Below, one piece after another: positions 1 to 36,769 of a stretch of DNA of 38,076 nt. Under the pieces are notes generated by a model that worked only from the letters and a program-made list of their open reading frames with translations, was not told the origin of the DNA and made no database searches. The stretch is from the IMG/VR virus record IMGVR_UViG_2690316068_000004, positions 1 through 38,076 of that record; one strand, written 5' to 3'. The stretch is from a virus. Its lineage: Duplodnaviria > Heunggongvirae > Uroviricota > Caudoviricetes. The position numbers and the translations under genes are program-made. How positions within the stretch are numbered: position 1 is the first letter of the stretch; every line of letters begins with the position of its first letter.

Positions 1-858
1 ATGATGGCATTATTACTGGAGCCACTGCAGTTCACCTTTATAAGTCACGCACTGCTGATTTCACTGGTAGTTTCCATACCCTGTGCGCTGCTGTCGGTCT
101 TTCTGGTCCTGAAAGGTTGGGCACTGATGGGTGACGCGATGAGTCATGCGGTTTTTCCTGGCATCGTGCTTGCCTGGATTCTGGGGTTACCTTTGGCTAC
201 AGGGGCATTCGTCGCCGGAGTATTCTGCGCGGTGGCGACGGGATACCTGAAAGACAACAGCCGAATCAAGCAAGATACAGTGATGGGGATTGTTTTTTCT
301 GGCATGTTTGCCGCAGGTCTGATCTTGTATATTGCAGTCAAACCAGACGTACATCTTGACCATATTCTTTTCGGCGACATGCTCGGGATAACCATCGGCG
401 ATATAATCCAGACGGTGATTATTGCTGGGCTGGTTACACTTGTTATTAGCGTAAAATGGCGAGATTTTTTGCTGTTCAGCTTTGATTATCAACAGGCGCA
501 GGTAAGCGGTTTGCATACGAGATGGCTGCATTATGGGCTGCTGTGCATGGTCTCTCTGACCATTGTGGCGACGCTGAAAGCGGTAGGTATCATTCTCTCC
601 ATTTCTCTGCTCATTGCGCCTGGCGCCATTGCGGTACTCCTGACACAACGCTTTTATATTGCGCTCCTACTGGCGACTGGCATATCGGTAATAGTGTCAA
701 TGACCGGTGTCTGGCTGTCCTTTTTTATCGACAGCGCACCAGCTCCGACGATTGTCGTCTTATTCGCGGTCGCGTTCATCATGACGTTTACCGTTACCAG
801 CATCAACGCACGCACAAAGGGAAACGCCCATACACAGGATCTGTTATCACCCAATTAG
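1..858 (+). CDS. sitD: ABC-3 family metal (Mn/Fe) transporter permease, SitD/MntB-like; ORF begins at window edge so the true start may lie upstream
   Basis: 285-aa polytopic hydrophobic ORF whose sequence I recognise as SitD/MntB-type permease; ends at 858, convergent with the prophage tail fibre gene. Confidence 0.65.
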   Translation: MMALLLEPLQFTFISHALLISLVVSIPCALLSVFLVLKGWALMGDAMSHAVFPGIVLAWILGLPLATGAFVAGVFCAVATGYLKDNSRIKQDTVMGIVFSGMFAAGLILYIAVKPDVHLDHILFGDMLGITIGDIIQTVIIAGLVTLVISVKWRDFLLFSFDYQQAQVSGLHTRWLHYGLLCMVSLTIVATLKAVGIILSISLLIAPGAIAVLLTQRFYIALLLATGISVIVSMTGVWLSFFIDSAPAPTIVVLFAVAFIMTFTVTSINARTKGNAHTQDLLSPN

Positions 859-25550: not shown

Positions 25551-25880
25551 TCAAGGACGTGACGGCGTAAAGATAAATTGTCTCTTCACTCCCTGACAGG
25601 GGCGATTCTTTTCAAATCGCCATTTCGCCATGGCCTTCACCACTTCATCACGAAACAAATTATGAGGCTCTGAGCGGAGAAAAACGATCCGTGTCACAGT
25701 CCCATCAGCACCAATATCGAACTTAACCTCAACCAGCCCCTTGATATAATTTGCTGCAGCATATTCCGGATATCGTGGATACACCGTCACTAATTGCCGG
25801 GGCTCATCAGCTTTTTGCTGCGAGCATCCCACTGCCAGGACAGATAACAGAAAAAGTAGTAAAAGGCGTCTTTTCATTTT
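25551..25880 (-). CDS. Putative lipoprotein with TonB C-terminal-like domain
   Basis: Internal start MKRRLLLLFLLSVLAVGC (lipobox LAVGC) followed by a YP...G.V.V.F.I...G.V TonB-C-like pattern. Confidence 0.55.
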   Translation of the reverse strand, partial: KMKRRLLLLFLLSVLAVGCSQQKADEPRQLVTVYPRYPEYAAANYIKGLVEVKFDIGADGTVTRIVFLRSEPHNLFRDEVVKAMAKWRFEKNRPCQGVKRQFIFTPSRP

Positions 25881-26358
25881 TATTCCTACGGGTCTTATTC
25901 TGACAATATATCCTGTGTTCCAGACTGCCACATCACCACATCCTGTGCCATTATCTGACTCACATTACATACATCGCATCGGGATACAGTAGTAGCACTT
26001 TCTGTAATACAGCTTCCTGTTTCTTCCACCATCGCACCGGGATAAACCCGCGAATCATTAACGCGGTAAAAACCCGGTGTGCATCGTTTTTAATTATTCC
26101 CGCACACTCACGCAGAAGGAATTCCCCCGTCGGGCTACGGTCATGGTTAATGCGGGAATACGGCGACGATACAGCGCAGCTAAAAGGGTAATGGACGGAT
26201 AGACCGGTTTATTTCATTCCACAGGATTCTGAGTGTCCCCAACTTCCTCCAATAGTCTGAGCCCACCTGTGTAGTTTTAATTTTCATCAATCCATTTAAC
26301 TATCGTTTAATTGTTGTCACATAGGATTCTGCCGTTTTTAACAATGCAGGATAATAAG

Positions 26359-26683: not shown

Positions 26684-27145
26684 CTATCTGCACTGCTCAT
26701 TAATATACTTCTGGGTTCCTTCCAGTTGTTTTTGCATAGTGATCAGCCTCTCTCTGAGGGTGAAATAATCCCGTTCAGCGGTGTCTGCCAGTCGGGGGGA
26801 GGCTGCATTATCCACGCCGGAGGCGGTGGTGGCTTCACGCACTGACTGACAGACTGCTTTGATGTGCAACCGACGACGACCAGCGGCAACATCATCACGT
26901 AGAGCATCATTTTCAGCTTTCGCATCAGCTAACTCCTTCGTGTATTTTGCATCGAGCGCAGCAACATCACGCTGACGCATCTGCATGTCAGTAATTGCCG
27001 CGTTCGCCAGCTTCAGTTCTCTGGCATTTTTGTCGCGCTGGGCTTTGTAGGTAATGGCGTTATCACGATAATGATTAACAGCCCATGACATGCAGACGAT
27101 GATGCAGATGAGCAGAGCGGAGATAATCGCGGCTACTCTTCTCAC
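26684..27145 (-). CDS. Rz: Inner-membrane spanin Rz, GTG start
   Basis: (V)[44 protein letters not shown]... matches lambda Rz; GTG at 27143..27145 preceded by GGGGGA. Confidence 0.85.
26743..26925 (-). CDS. Rz1: Outer-membrane lipoprotein spanin Rz1, embedded in Rz in the +1 frame
   Basis: 60 aa [24 protein letters not shown]...[15 protein letters not shown], lipobox and proline-rich as in lambda Rz1. Confidence 0.85.
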
Positions 27146-27676
27146 TGATCTATCCCCCAACAGGCTAAATGCGCTTTCCTGGTCACGACGAATAACCTGT
27201 CCGTAGCAGTTATTTGAACGTGTGCGGCAATCACGCCCACCGTCCTTAATCCACCAGCGAATCGACTCACAGGCACCTTTACGATCACCGGCATTAAGCC
27301 GCTTATAAAACGTCGACGGGAAACACTTACCGGGGCCAATGTTATAGGGACAAAATGACGCGATACCTGCTTTTTGTGGCTCGGTCAGTGGAACTTTTAT
27401 ATTACGCTCCACCCATGCCAGCGCCTTATCCCGCTCAATGGCGTTAACCTGGGCGCATTTTTCCTTCGACAGTTTCATGCCCGGAATAACAGGTTTACCC
27501 TCCACCACAGTGGCACCCCGGCAAATGGTCCATATGCCGGAACCATCGCGGTATGCCGTTGTGTGGTTACCCTCTTTTTCGTCCAGAAACTGGTCAAGTA
27601 TCTGAGGAGCAGACGCGCCTGCGGCAATCAGCGCCAGAACAGCAGCCGACAGGCCGTATCTGATTTTTACGTTCAT
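27142..27676 (-). pseudogene. R: Phage lysozyme (GH24-type, signal-anchor N-terminus), apparently frameshifted near the 3' end so the ORF reads through into Rz
   Basis: The 330-aa ORF is lysozyme (aa 1-177) plus Rz (aa 178-330) with no stop; the expected C-terminus ...ACWGIDQ and TGA at 27142..27144 lie in the +1 frame; the span is 535 nt, one more than 178 codons. Confidence 0.7.
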
Positions 27677-27810: not shown

Positions 27811-28050
27811 ATGCAAAAAGAAGTTTTTATCAATATTACAGCTGACTGCTCATCTCCTGCATCAACAGCAAAAGAAATTGAAGCTCTTAAATATATGATT
27901 ACAGTAATATTTTCCGTATTGGACCAGAATGAAAAAAATGGAATCATTCATCAATTAAATGAACATGTAAATAATCCATATATCAAAAGCAATCTGGAAA
28001 TGCTGCTACCAATGAAAGATATTGGAAAACCAACTGAAACAAAAGGCTAA
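27811..28050 (+). CDS. Hypothetical 79-aa protein, AT-rich moron inside the lysis cassette on the opposite strand
   Basis: ORF with GAGGA RBS 8 nt upstream of the ATG; AT-rich; no recognised homology. Confidence 0.5.
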   Translation: MQKEVFINITADCSSPASTAKEIEALKYMITVIFSVLDQNEKNGIIHQLNEHVNNPYIKSNLEMLLPMKDIGKPTETKG

Positions 28051-28361
28051 CAACCAGTAATTGAGTTATCTGAACTGTTAATTTTTATGGTATACCGCGC
28101 CTCTGAACAGGGGCGCGTTTCTGGCAACAGCTCGTCCCCTTCACATAACCCGGCAGCAACATCCAGGAAGACCTGTCTGATGCTCCTTCTGGCTGCAGCC
28201 TCATAAAACTCCAGCGCGGCACCTTCAACACGGTCCAGCGAGATGTCCAGGTCAAAAATTTCACCGTCAAAGCGTTTTTTGTCCCGTAATGCTAAAGTTA
28301 CCGTAACTTTATTCTCAAAATTGCGGATTCCTTTCACAATCATTTCATAGTATTGGGCCAT
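28047..28361 (-). CDS. Hypothetical 104-aa protein between holin and lysozyme (possibly YdfR/DUF1327-like; family unverified)
   Basis: Same strand as the lysis genes; starts 5 nt after the holin stop. Confidence 0.55.
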   Translation of the reverse strand: MAQYYEMIVKGIRNFENKVTVTLALRDKKRFDGEIFDLDISLDRVEGAALEFYEAAARRSIRQVFLDVAAGLCEGDELLPETRPCSEARYTIKINSSDNSITGC

Positions 28362-28698: not shown

Positions 28699-28774
28699 TG
28701 GTGCTGGTTAACGGACTTGAACCGCCACCCATTCGCTTACAAGGCGACTGCTCTACCATTGGAGCTAAACCAGC
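28699..28774 (-). tRNA. tRNA, predicted anticodon UGU (Thr) from hand folding
   Basis: 76 nt folding as a cloverleaf with GCTC/GAGC D-stem, anticodon loop CTTGTAA, T-loop TTCAAGT, encoded CCA; C at position 14 and a G.A pair at the top of the anticodon stem. Confidence 0.6.
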
Positions 28775-28779
28775 ATGTT

Positions 28780-28854
28780 TGGCGGGACAGCGTGGACTCG
28801 AACCACGATAAGAAGGTTAACAGCCTTCCGTAATGACCTTTATACGACTGACCC
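28780..28854 (-). tRNA. tRNA-Asn (anticodon GUU)
   Basis: 75 nt with anticodon arm GAAGG-CTGTTAA-CCTTC, T-arm CGTGG-TTCGAGT-CCACG, encoded CCA; one T.T mismatch in the acceptor stem. Confidence 0.65.
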
Positions 28855-28910: not shown

Positions 28911-28940
28911 ATTATGGCTAAATGGCTAATTGCATGTCAA
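28911..28940 (-). promoter_or_regulatory. Candidate late promoter pR' overlapping the Q stop codon
   Basis: Minus-strand TTGACA (28935..28940), 18-nt spacer, CATAAT (28911..28916); hairpin and T-run follow before the tRNAs. Confidence 0.4.
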
Positions 28941-29436: not shown

Positions 29437-30098
29437 GCGACTTCTCCCTGTACCTGAATCAATGTGAGGTTTCCGCAGAACACTGCGCCGGTATCGATAT
29501 ACATCTGGTTGGCAAATTTGAGTGGTTTCACTGCTGGCGTATGACCAAAGATGAACGTGTCCGCGCCTTTGATTTCTTTCACGATCCCGTCTTGTGAGTT
29601 GCCGATTCGTTCGCGGTTCCAGATTACCTGCTGAGGATCAACTGGCTTTCCAAATTCGTATTCGTTACAAGGATAATCGGCGTGGCAAATGACATATTTT
29701 TTATCTTTGCTCACCAGTTCGATGATTAACGGAAGTTCTTCTGCTTTATGGGCAAGAACTTTAGCCAGAGTCTCTTTGTCGTAATCGAGATTAAAGAACC
29801 AGCCACCGCCATTAAGCAGCCAGTGATTAACGTTTCCACGCTCTGATAAGCCATCAATCATCATTTGCTCATGGTTTCCACGTACAGCTCTGAACCAGGG
29901 GAATGTGATTAATTCCAGACATTCGACGTTCTCTGTACCGCGATCAACCAAATCGCCAACCGAGATGAGCAGGTCTTTTTTGTTGTCGAATCCAATCGTA
30001 TCCAGTTTGTTCATCAGGTTCGTGTAGCATCCGTGCAGGTCGCCAGCTACCCAAATATTTCGGTATTTGCTGCCATCAATTCTTTCGTAGATATTCAT
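29427..30098 (-). CDS. Ser/Thr protein phosphatase (lambda PPase / Nin221 homologue)
   Basis: GDLHG, GDLVDRG and GNHE metallophosphatase motifs; matches lambda phosphatase as recalled. Confidence 0.9.
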
Positions 30099-30709: not shown

Positions 30710-30869
30710 CTTCTTCCTCGTGCATCGAGCTATTCGAATCGCTCATCAGCTCTGCACAGCAGTGCTCACACACGTGAACTTCCAGCACATGCAGCTTCTG
30801 ACCGCAATTAGCGCACGTTAAAGCCCGCTCGACGCTTTCTTGTTCGTAACTTCGATTTGGGTCAATCAC
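30699..30869 (-). CDS. ninF: NinF, probable GTG start overlapping the NinE stop
   Basis: (V)[37 protein letters not shown] matches lambda NinF; longer ORF to 30911 is possible. Confidence 0.65.
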
Positions 30870-31048
30870 CTTGTATTCCTCGCACGATGTCTTAGCCACC
30901 GGATATCCCACAGGTGAGCCGTGTAGTTGAAGGTTTTTACGTCAGATTCTTTTGGGATTGGCTTGCGTTTATTTCTGGAGCGTTTCGTTGGAAGGTATTT
31001 GCAGTTTTCGCAGATGATGTCGGTGAAACTTCGTCGTTGTCGCCTCAT
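30866..31048 (-). CDS. ninE: NinE
   Basis: Internal start [23 protein letters not shown]... matches lambda NinE (60 aa). Confidence 0.8.
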
Positions 31049-31572
31049 GCCGCCCTCCTGACGCCCTGCCCGATCGCCATCAATGCCGCTTTGGATACGA
31101 TAGTAAACATCCGTCGAGGACTGATGAACGGTCGCCAAATCAGCAGCATGGAGCCTTTGCTGTTTCCCTTCTTTTCCAGCCCTGTCGATGGTTCGATAAA
31201 ATTAATCCGTCCATCAGTGATAATACGAACTTCGTCAACACTCTCCAGAGCCTTGCTGAACCATCCGACAGACATATCCTCTGGCACAAGCATCACTACC
31301 GTCTGTCGCTGTTGTATGCACTGCTCAGCGGCTTTTTCCACCCACGGCCTGATATTGCTGTACGGTGGGTTATTCCAGATTGCACCGTGGCTTACCCACT
31401 CAGAATTGAGCGCGTCGTCGTCCTCAGTTAGCCAGTGAGCGCACAGAGCATTTTTGTCGCTCGCTGCCGAATCCAGCCAGAATCCAAACTCAATATCCAG
31501 TGCATCAAAAAGCCAAAGCGGCGTTTGCCAGCAGTCCTTGTCGTGTGCTGGAGTATTTGATTTGATAGTCAT
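31045..31572 (-). CDS. Phage Dam-like DNA N6-adenine methyltransferase
   Basis: NPPY motif (IWNNPPYSN); ATG at 31570..31572 overlaps the NinB stop; occupies the slot of lambda ninC/ninD. Confidence 0.75.
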
Positions 31573-32009
31573 GCAGCCCGATCTCCCCATCGCGCTTTCC
31601 ATTCGAGAGCTAGTCGCGCTTCGTCTGACCACTTAACGCCACGCTCTGTACCGAATGCCTGTATAAGCTCTAATAGCTCCGCAAATTCGCTTACACGCAT
31701 CCTGCTGGTTGACTGGCCTATTACCACAAAGCCATTCCCGGCAAGGTTAGGAACAACGTCCTGCTGCTTTAATGCTGCTGTAAAAACGCACTTCCAGCTT
31801 TCTGCATCCAGCCAGCGACCATGCCATTCAACCTGACGAGAGACGTCACCAAGGCAAGCCCAAAGCTTTCGATTCTGGTCTAAGCTGCGGTTGCGTTCCT
31901 GAATGGTTACTACGATTGGTTTGGTTGGGTCTGGAAGGATTTGCTGGATAGCTTGAATGGCGTTCTGCTGATGTGCTGGAGATCGAATTTCAAAGGTTAG
32001 TTTTTTCAT
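31569..32009 (-). CDS. ninB: NinB (Orf) recombination mediator
   Basis: Internal start MKKLTFEIRSPAHQQNAI... matches lambda NinB. Confidence 0.9.
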   Translation of the reverse strand: MKKLTFEIRSPAHQQNAIQAIQQILPDPTKPIVVTIQERNRSLDQNRKLWACLGDVSRQVEWHGRWLDAESWKCVFTAALKQQDVVPNLAGNGFVVIGQSTSRMRVSEFAELLELIQAFGTERGVKWSDEARLALEWKARWGDRAA

Positions 32010-32082
32010 GACTTCCCTCTCCCCCAAATAAAAAGGCCTGCGATTACCAGCAGGCCTGTTATTAGCTCAGTGATGTAGATGG

Positions 32083-34653: not shown

Positions 34654-34763
34654 ATGCCCTCCATAGTAAACACGAATAAAAAATACAATATGTACTTTAC
34701 GAATACAAGTAAAAATACACATTGTGCATGGATGGTTCCAGTACAAAGCGTAATAATAAGGAC
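34654..34763. promoter_or_regulatory. OR/pR/pRM region with candidate operator palindromes
   Basis: 110-bp cro-cI intergenic region; TACAATATGTA (34684..34694) and repeated ATACAA half-sites; shares AAAGTACATATYGTA with OL. Confidence 0.6.
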
Positions 34764-35423
34764 ATGAAAATGAAATGGTATGAACTGGCTAGATCCAGAA
34801 TGAAAGAGCTCGGCATAACTCAAGAGAAGTTAGCCGAAGAGCTAGGTATGACGCAGGGTGGGATTGGACACTGGTTGCGCGGATCTCGTCATCCATCTCT
34901 TAGTGATATTGGTGTGGTGTTTAAATACCTTGGTATTGATAACATATCATTCAACCACGACGGGACATTTTCACCTGTTGGCGAATACTCATCGGCCCCA
35001 GTTAAAAAACAATATGAGTACCCTGTTTTTTCTCATGTTCAGGCTGGGATGTTCTCTCCAGAACTCAGAACCTTTACCAAAGGCGATGCGGAGAGATTGG
35101 TAAGCACAACCAAAAAAGCCAGTGACTCTGCATTCTGGCTTGAGGTTGAAGGTAACTCAATGACCGCACCAACAGGTTCCAAACCCAGCTTTCCTGACGG
35201 GATGTTAATTCTGGTTGACCCTGAGCAAGCTGTTGAGCCCGGCGATTTCTGCATAGCCAGACTTGGTGGTGATGAATTTACCTTCAAGAAACTGATCAGG
35301 GATAGCGGTCAGGTGTTTCTACAGCCACTAAACCCACAATACCCAATGATCCCATGCAATGAGAGTTGTTCCGTTGTGGGGAAAGTTATCGCCAGCCAAT
35401 GGCCTGAAGAGACGTTTGGGTGA
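34764..35423 (+). CDS. cI: CI prophage repressor (N-terminal HTH, C-terminal LexA/S24-like autocleavage domain), non-lambda immunity
   Basis: C-terminus [35 protein letters not shown] matches lambda CI; N-terminal domain differs; AAGGA RBS before ATG 34764. Confidence 0.85.
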
Positions 35424-35462: not shown

Positions 35463-36020
35463 TTGGCAAAAATAGATGATTATCAGCCAAGCCAAGTAGA
35501 AGTTGATAAAGTACTTTATTGTAAAAAAATAGTTAACTTTTCTGGCGTTAAATGGAAACAGAAACCAAGTCGCTCTGATATGTGGCTACAAGCTCATATC
35601 ATCCCCTTGGATGAGGATTGTATACCTATACAAGGGCTAAAGTTTGAACTGAAATGGAAACCAGATCAGGATTCAGAACCTGATGACCCGATTTCTTACC
35701 CTAAAATAAATATTATTGCTTTCTATCATAACAAGAGGGTTTTCGCGGTAGATACCTATCACTTTGACAAACACACGAATAGTTACAAGGTCGATCATCC
35801 GAAGTACCAAGATATCATTTACGGTGCTCACTACCATGTATACTATGAAGAAGCTGGATACTATAGTGATAGAATAGCGTTTCCAATCGAAGATGACATA
35901 AACCCAGATGACCTGGTAGGGTATTGGAATTACTTCTGTAAACATCTGAACATAACTTACTCTGGGAGAATACCTTTACCGCTTGAAGATGAGTCGGGGC
36001 AAATGGGGTTTGGAATATGA
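35463..36020 (+). CDS. Hypothetical 185-aa protein, first gene of the module in the rexA slot; TTG start
   Basis: ORF begins 39 nt after the cI stop; AT-rich; acidic, Tyr/His-rich; no TM segments or motifs recognised. Confidence 0.6.
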   Translation: MAKIDDYQPSQVEVDKVLYCKKIVNFSGVKWKQKPSRSDMWLQAHIIPLDEDCIPIQGLKFELKWKPDQDSEPDDPISYPKINIIAFYHNKRVFAVDTYHFDKHTNSYKVDHPKYQDIIYGAHYHVYYEEAGYYSDRIAFPIEDDINPDDLVGYWNYFCKHLNITYSGRIPLPLEDESGQMGFGI

Positions 36021-36769
36021 TGTGCTCAACAGTGATCTCACAACTAGGTTTCGAATGCCATCCAATAGGCAAGACCTTGAGAATTATCAGTCCATTCACT
36101 TACTGTGATGATGGAGAGCATGTCGGTGCCTTTATCCGTGAAGTCAATGGTAGGTATTTAGTTAGTGACAGATGCGATGCCTTAATGAATATGGAGGCAA
36201 GAGGGATCTCGCTTACCAAAAAACGACTTGATGAGATACGACAATTACTGCTTAAAGAAGGCGCAGAACTCAATGCTCGAGGAGAAATCATTGCTTGGGC
36301 AACAGAAAAGGATGTCGGTGCGATTACATCGAACATAATTAGAGCTGGTATACTCGCATCAACTTTGTCGTTAGACTGGTATCAGCCAGTTCAAGCTGAA
36401 AAGTTTGAAAGTATGGTTATTGATTATCTATATCACACAGAGCTTAGAGACGCACTTTCTCTTCGTGAAAACGTATATGGCTTGAGTGGACATCAAATTA
36501 CCGTCCCTGTAACAATAAAAACCGACATACCTAAATACGTTTTTACATCAAGCGTGAAACACGGAGGAAGCTGGAATAGTGCTTACTCATTGCTTGGGAA
36601 ACTAATTGATCTTAAAGCTTCAAGTGAGGAGTATAACAACAGATTTGTTGTTATAGACAGCGAAGCAATTGGTGATCAAATGCAACAACTCTCCTTACTC
36701 TTCCATGAATCAAGCCAAGTTCTACCATTCTCCAAAAGAGAGACTTGGGTTAAGAGACTTGCAGCATAA
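36017..36769 (+). CDS. Hypothetical 250-aa protein, second gene of the module in the rexB slot
   Basis: ATGA start/stop overlap with the upstream ORF; soluble; no homology recognised. Confidence 0.6.
   Translation: MMCSTVISQLGFECHPIGKTLRIISPFTYCDDGEHVGAFIREVNGRYLVSDRCDALMNMEARGISLTKKRLDEIRQLLLKEGAELNARGEIIAWATEKDVGAITSNIIRAGILASTLSLDWYQPVQAEKFESMVIDYLYHTELRDALSLRENVYGLSGHQITVPVTIKTDIPKYVFTSSVKHGGSWNSAYSLLGKLIDLKASSEEYNNRFVVIDSEAIGDQMQQLSLLFHESSQVLPFSKRETWVKRLAA

Follow-up and report, generated by a model that had tools for sequence, protein, structure and literature searches.

The window analysed here, nucleotides (nt) 1 to 38,076 of virus record IMGVR_UViG_2690316068_000004, represents a lambda-like prophage in minus-strand orientation. 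Its nin region carries, between ninB and ninE, a gene for a phage Dam-type N6-adenine DNA methyltransferase. A preliminary description, made from the sequence alone, had placed this gene at 31045-31572 with the strand unstated; translation bore out the placement, giving 175 codons followed by TGA on the minus strand. The gene and its two main motifs are as follows.

31045..31572, minus strand: phage Dam-type N6-adenine DNA methyltransferase gene (175 amino acids plus stop), identified by translation, PF05869, TIGR01712, PHROG 111 and identity to VT2-Sakai orf32
31360..31371, minus strand: codons of NPPY, catalytic motif IV (residues 68-71), read from the sequence and invariant in 46 of 46 homologs and in the VT2, HP1 and T1 enzymes
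31459..31476, minus strand: codons of LDSAAS (residues 33-38), a stretch resembling motif I where the first beta strand ends, with D34 and A36 invariant in 46 of 46 homologs

The 175-amino-acid (aa) protein matched the Pfam family PF05869, "DNA N-6-adenine-methyltransferase (Dam)", with an expectation value (E) of 6.9e-65, which rules out a chance open reading frame (ORF), and with 218 bits against a cut-off of 28.1. The match covered residues 4-169, corresponding to profile positions 1-167 of 169. The NCBIfam equivalog TIGR01712, "phage N-6-adenine-methyltransferase", was matched over profile positions 1-165 of 165 (264 bits, cut-off 97.05), and PHROG 111 was matched as well. The conservation of single residues was assessed by aligning the protein with its VT2, HP1 and T1 counterparts (four sequences) and, separately, by aligning 46 homologs at 58-98% identity. 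Invariant in both were T17, P18, L33, D34, N68-P69-P70-Y71-S72, D99, R122, F125 and K139; A36 was also invariant in the larger set, while D13 and W15 were invariant among the four and conserved in at least 90% of the 46 homologs. The NPPY motif noted in the preliminary description was thus found where expected, and the loss of catalytic residues that it had named as counting against its proposal was not seen on alignment, where these residues were intact. Together with the full-length PF05869 and TIGR01712 matches, they support the N6-adenine methyltransferase identity. The chemistry associated with an NPPY motif is transfer of a methyl group from S-adenosylmethionine (SAM) to N6 of an adenine that is flipped out and gripped by the NPPY loop. 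By analogy with the general architecture of class-I methyltransferases, the LDSAAS stretch would form the SAM-binding site.

At the protein level the gene product is almost indistinguishable from M.EcoVT2Dam (orf32, NP_050531) of the Shiga toxin 2 (Stx2) phage VT2-Sakai, with 173 of 175 residues identical and both proteins 175 aa long. The VT2-Sakai gene also stands in the order ninB-methyltransferase-ninE, with 4-nt overlaps on both sides as in the window, although the carriers differ, being a lambda-like prophage in the window and a short-tailed Stx phage for M.EcoVT2Dam. The two substitutions, D51 (A in VT2) and I158 (T in VT2), occupy positions of the 46-sequence alignment at which family members vary freely. 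M.EcoVT2Dam is cited in PMC6602927 as having been cloned by Radlinska & Bujnicki in 2001 and as targeting GATC. The gene is therefore already known, since an almost identical gene has previously been cloned and characterised, and standard pipelines annotate it correctly. More distant members of PF05869 are the Dam proteins of the Haemophilus phage HP1 (38% identity) and the coliphage T1 (33%). These are divergent sequences from unrelated phages, and the T1 protein is extended by 45 residues at its N terminus and has 14 residues inserted; nevertheless, both share all of the motif residues, namely the N-terminal D-x-W-x-T-P, L-D-x-x-A and NPPYS.

The label "Dam-like" used in the preliminary description fits the target specificity but not the family. 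The alpha-class family of the E. coli and T4 Dam enzymes, PF02086, was not matched, PF05869 being the sole Pfam family at E <= 0.01. When the structural model described below was compared with the E. coli/T4 Dam structures (2ore, 1q0s), just 104-108 residues superposed, at 8-10% identity, and the solved Dam chains span 241-243 residues compared to the 175 aa of the window protein. The E. coli and T4 Dam enzymes moreover carry DPPY, whereas the window protein has NPPY. Because of the missing PF02086 match, the limited superposition, the NPPY motif and the shorter protein, the shared GATC specificity is regarded as analogous rather than orthologous; the name "Dam" denotes specificity, not orthology.

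A confident AlphaFold2 model built on the 46-sequence alignment (mean predicted local distance difference test score 89.8, predicted template modelling score 0.87) displayed a class-I, Rossmann-like N6-adenine methyltransferase fold, and its best matches among solved structures were N6-adenine methyltransferases. In the model, the N-terminal W-x-T-P and L-D-x-A-A elements, which together make up a putative SAM pocket, map to a helix (residues 19-29) and a strand (residues 31-36, LDSAAS), and a further strand (residues 64-68) precedes NPPY. The fold is nearer to the gamma-class enzyme M.TaqI and to PCIF1 than to E. coli Dam. PCIF1, an mRNA cap-specific adenosine N6-methyltransferase, was in fact the closest solved structure, which could be taken to suggest an RNA rather than a DNA target. 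It ranked only narrowly ahead of the DNA enzymes, however, and this ranking is the sole hint in that direction, so that the probability of an RNA target is considered virtually negligible.

In contrast to M.TaqI-type gamma-class enzymes and PCIF1, which carry large extra target-recognition domains (382-544 aa), the window protein consists of approximately the core alone. Past the catalytic core the model contains only a hairpin loop (approximately residues 121-140) and a short C-terminal strand and helix. With a separate recognition domain absent, the conserved hairpin (R122, F125, K139) is the obvious candidate for the GATC reader. A protein of just 175 aa, too small for a conventional target-recognition domain, might on the other hand be an active DNA adenine methyltransferase with a specificity other or broader than GATC. 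Searching the sequences of solved structures with the single protein and with the 46-sequence profile yielded nothing meaningful, the family being matched by fold comparison only, and hence no solved family structure illustrates how the target is read. Nevertheless, a different or relaxed specificity appears very unlikely given the 99% identity to the GATC enzyme M.EcoVT2Dam, with both substitutions in variable columns. Moreover, no extra adenine motif was attributed to the enzyme in strains with identical copies of M.EcoVT2Dam (PMC6602927). The non-specific adenine methyltransferases Hia5/Hin1523, whose membership of the family would have put the GATC specificity in doubt, were rejected as members: they possess FxGxG and DPPY motifs and represent a separate family, and the paper describing them makes no mention of HP1, T1 or VT-2. 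GATC thus stays the predicted target of the window enzyme.

The genes on either side of the methyltransferase gene were identified as follows.

31569..32009, minus strand: ninB (orf), recombination mediator, 146 aa (PF05772, E 1e-54; 97% nt identity to lambda)
30866..31048, minus strand: ninE, 60 aa (PF05322, E 1.3e-42)

With NinB and NinE as flanks, no restriction partner adjoins the methyltransferase, and beyond NinE follow NinF, NinG, a phosphatase and Q. This agrees with the orphan status proposed in the preliminary description, and the best matches in PADLOC were likewise orphan-methyltransferase models. On the minus strand the sequence at either junction is ATGA, again as previously described: the methyltransferase ATG (31572-31570) shares bases with the stop TGA of ninB (31571-31569), and the methyltransferase stop TGA (31047-31045) does so with the ninE ATG (31048-31046). 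A GGAG Shine-Dalgarno sequence lies 10 nt upstream of the methyltransferase ATG. The list of ORFs also held a 195-aa reading from a GTG at 31632, which would overlap ninB by 64 nt. This longer reading was rejected, as full-length homologs are mostly 172-185 aa long and the GGAG before the ATG favours a start at 31572.

The words at the junctions are alike, with GGCTGCATGA found at both ninB/dam and ninG/ninI and GGCGGCATGA at dam/ninE. Such coupling is not distinctive of the methyltransferase gene, because ATGA occurred in five of the eight operon junctions checked (O/P, P/ren, ninB/dam, dam/ninE and ninG/ninI) and because tight ATGA packing is typical of nin regions across all lambdoid phages, as reported in the phage L genome paper (PMC8022706). 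Among the database proteins, P0002 and P0022 are Dam+NinE fusions, while P0016 and P0113 are Dam+NinB fusions. These fused entries probably result from frameshifts or from erroneous gene calls where the genes meet at ATGA.

Comparison with lambda by blastn showed that the methyltransferase gene sits in a short block of foreign DNA.

31042..31568, minus strand: non-lambda cassette of 527 nt in place of lambda 41085-42096 (ninC and ninD; 1,012 nt), delimited by blastn

From O to the last base of ninB the window is 97% identical to lambda (window 33153-31569 corresponding to lambda 39500-41084), and homology restarts at 98%, 7 nt inside ninE (window 31041 corresponding to lambda 42097). The lambda annotation lists ninC and ninD here but lacks a methyltransferase, so both the statement that the gene replaces ninC/ninD and the statement that lambda has no such gene here proved correct. 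The lambda genes filling the ninB-ninE slot are unrelated, with no sequence similarity over the 527-nt cassette, and NinC is annotated as a member of the 3'-phosphoadenosine-5'-phosphosulfate (PAPS) reductase family. The replacement is clean, with breakpoints at gene boundaries, which fits the lambdoid habit of exchanging genes at boundaries and offers a clean example of such cassette exchange in a lambdoid nin region. A separate difference from lambda in the same region is the absence of ninH: at window 30089-30098 the lambda homology jumps from 43043 (ninG end) to 43233 (inside ninI). Only approximately 5 nt of the window span the gap, and ninG and the ninI-type phosphatase gene are joined by an ATGA overlap.

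The 528-nt gene is widespread in E. coli. At a threshold of at least 95% nt identity, it was found in 1,566 of the 5,426 complete E. coli genomes (approximately 29%), with 1,574 records altogether, and in all of the matches listed it was annotated as "phage N-6-adenine-methyltransferase" between NinB and NinE. Among phages, 244 records carried the protein at a minimum of 95% identity, including ev207 and many Stx1/Stx2 phages; with more distant relatives included, the number of phage records rose to 2,164 in all. The ninB-dam-ninE block was also found at the DNA level in phages 434, SfI, HK140 and others, the gene again reaching the 95% nt identity threshold. These data bear on whether the window gene could be a non-functional remnant in a decaying prophage. 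An apparent 1-nt frameshift that fuses the endolysin to Rz elsewhere in the same prophage does suggest that the element may be degenerating. The methyltransferase ORF, on the other hand, is intact and full length, contains all of the invariant family residues and is translationally coupled on both sides, and a copy with 100% nt identity over the 528 nt is present in E. coli strain Q5, in addition to the 1,573 further records at or above the 95% threshold. Decay of the gene is accordingly held to be extremely unlikely.

Its expression can be predicted from the position of the gene within the operon, for which one further feature is relevant.

32034..32057, minus strand: hairpin and T-run resembling an intrinsic terminator, between ren and ninB (consensus scan: 8-base-pair stem with 6 GC pairs, TTTTATTT tail)

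The hairpin falls within the stretch sharing 97% identity with lambda, and we take it to be the equivalent of lambda tR2. The operon would then be read rightward in the order O-P-ren-[terminator]-ninB-dam-ninE-ninF-ninG-ninI-Q, and the position downstream of the terminator-like hairpin points to delayed-early expression. Transcription from pR would reach the gene only after N antitermination, with translation coupled to that of ninB, and the enzyme would be produced during infection or induction but not in a quiet lysogen.

Taken together, we are highly confident that the gene encodes an orphan SAM-dependent DNA N6-adenine methyltransferase that is predicted to act on GATC, to be made from the delayed-early operon and probably to top up the methylation of phage DNA. 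Host Dam reportedly leaves lambda and P22 virion DNA under-methylated, perhaps because modification cannot keep pace with replication (PMC8022706). A phage GATC methylase made during replication could close the gap left by host Dam, yielding progeny genomes that are fully Gm6ATC-modified. Full methylation would in turn be expected to confer resistance to restriction systems cutting unmethylated GATC and to preclude MutH nicking, and any phage sites sensitive to Dam may thereby be locked in one methylation state. An anti-restriction or regulatory role, as put forward in the preliminary description, is plausible.

Several points weigh against this interpretation. For the window allele, activity is predicted, and GATC specificity is inferred from the 99% identity to M.EcoVT2Dam. 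E. coli hosts already possess Dam, and it is not obvious what a second GATC methylase would add. What phage Dam enzymes do biologically has been described as "still not well understood" (PMC7556043). In addition, the genes reported as expressed in cultures of lysogens of the Stx phage Φ24B included a putative phage Dam gene (PMC3342100), because of which strictly lytic expression is not certain. Host Dam is reportedly needed for stable 933W lysogeny, and these two observations together leave room for a regulatory role.

GATC itself is mildly depleted in the window, with 102 sites corresponding to 0.56 of the order-2 Markov expectation, which speaks neither for nor against a restriction-related role. 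A more speculative explanation, to which we assign a low probability, is that mismatch repair, and not restriction escape, accounts for the retention of the cassette next to ninB (Orf) and ninG (Rap), two genes of phage recombination. If this were true, fast GATC methylation of new phage DNA would switch off MutH-directed repair on recombination intermediates, and such a shut-off would promote the mosaic exchange typical of lambdoid phages. With the specificity predicted from sequence, the prophage would be able to methylate GATC independently of host Dam, which is relevant for reading E. coli methylomes and for the use of dam-negative hosts that carry such prophages.

Further observations were made in the rest of the window. 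At the left end, an ABC-3 family permease gene (1-858, plus strand; PF00950, E 3.6e-75) apparently belongs to the host chromosome, so that the window includes the left junction of the prophage. On the right, the window breaks off in the sieB/N region, ahead of any integrase. In the position occupied by rexA/rexB in lambda, directly downstream of a cI-type repressor gene (34722-35423), are two overlapping genes on the plus strand (35463-36020 and 36017-36769). The pair gave a weak DUF6978 match and a DUF1828 match in Pfam, and in PADLOC matched the candidate defence system PDC-M24 (subunit A, 4.8e-4; subunit B, 4.7e-10). It occurs at 99.9% identity in 7 phage records only, all annotated as hypothetical, and is possibly a prophage-borne exclusion or defence pair.

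Other observations concern the lysis region and its surroundings. The fusion mentioned above is a single 330-aa ORF (26684-27676, minus strand) with a signal-arrest-release (SAR)-type endolysin domain (PF00959, residues 33-167) followed by Rz (PF03245, residues 206-330). In phage Perceval, which is 98.9% identical, endolysin and Rz are separate; in the window, a TTT run contains an additional T (GCATTTAGCC, indel at 27169), which shifts the last approximately 11 codons of the endolysin so that the frame continues into Rz. The additional T reflects either a genuine frameshift in the lysis genes of a prophage in decay or an error in sequencing the homopolymer. Between the lysis and terminase genes, a 126-aa ORF (25551-25931, minus strand) with a TonB C-terminal domain (PF03544, E 1.1e-12) and no PADLOC match looks like a moron-type insertion. 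Genes for tRNA-Thr(tgt) and tRNA-Asn(gtt) (28699-28854, minus strand) lie between the Q gene, which ends at 28918, and an S21-type pinholin gene (28581-28366). Finally, the holin and endolysin genes are separated by a DUF1327 gene (28361-28047, minus strand) and then a 79-aa ORF (27811-28050, plus strand) in a gap of approximately 370 nt, a spacing (27811-28361) that is unusual for a lysis cassette.
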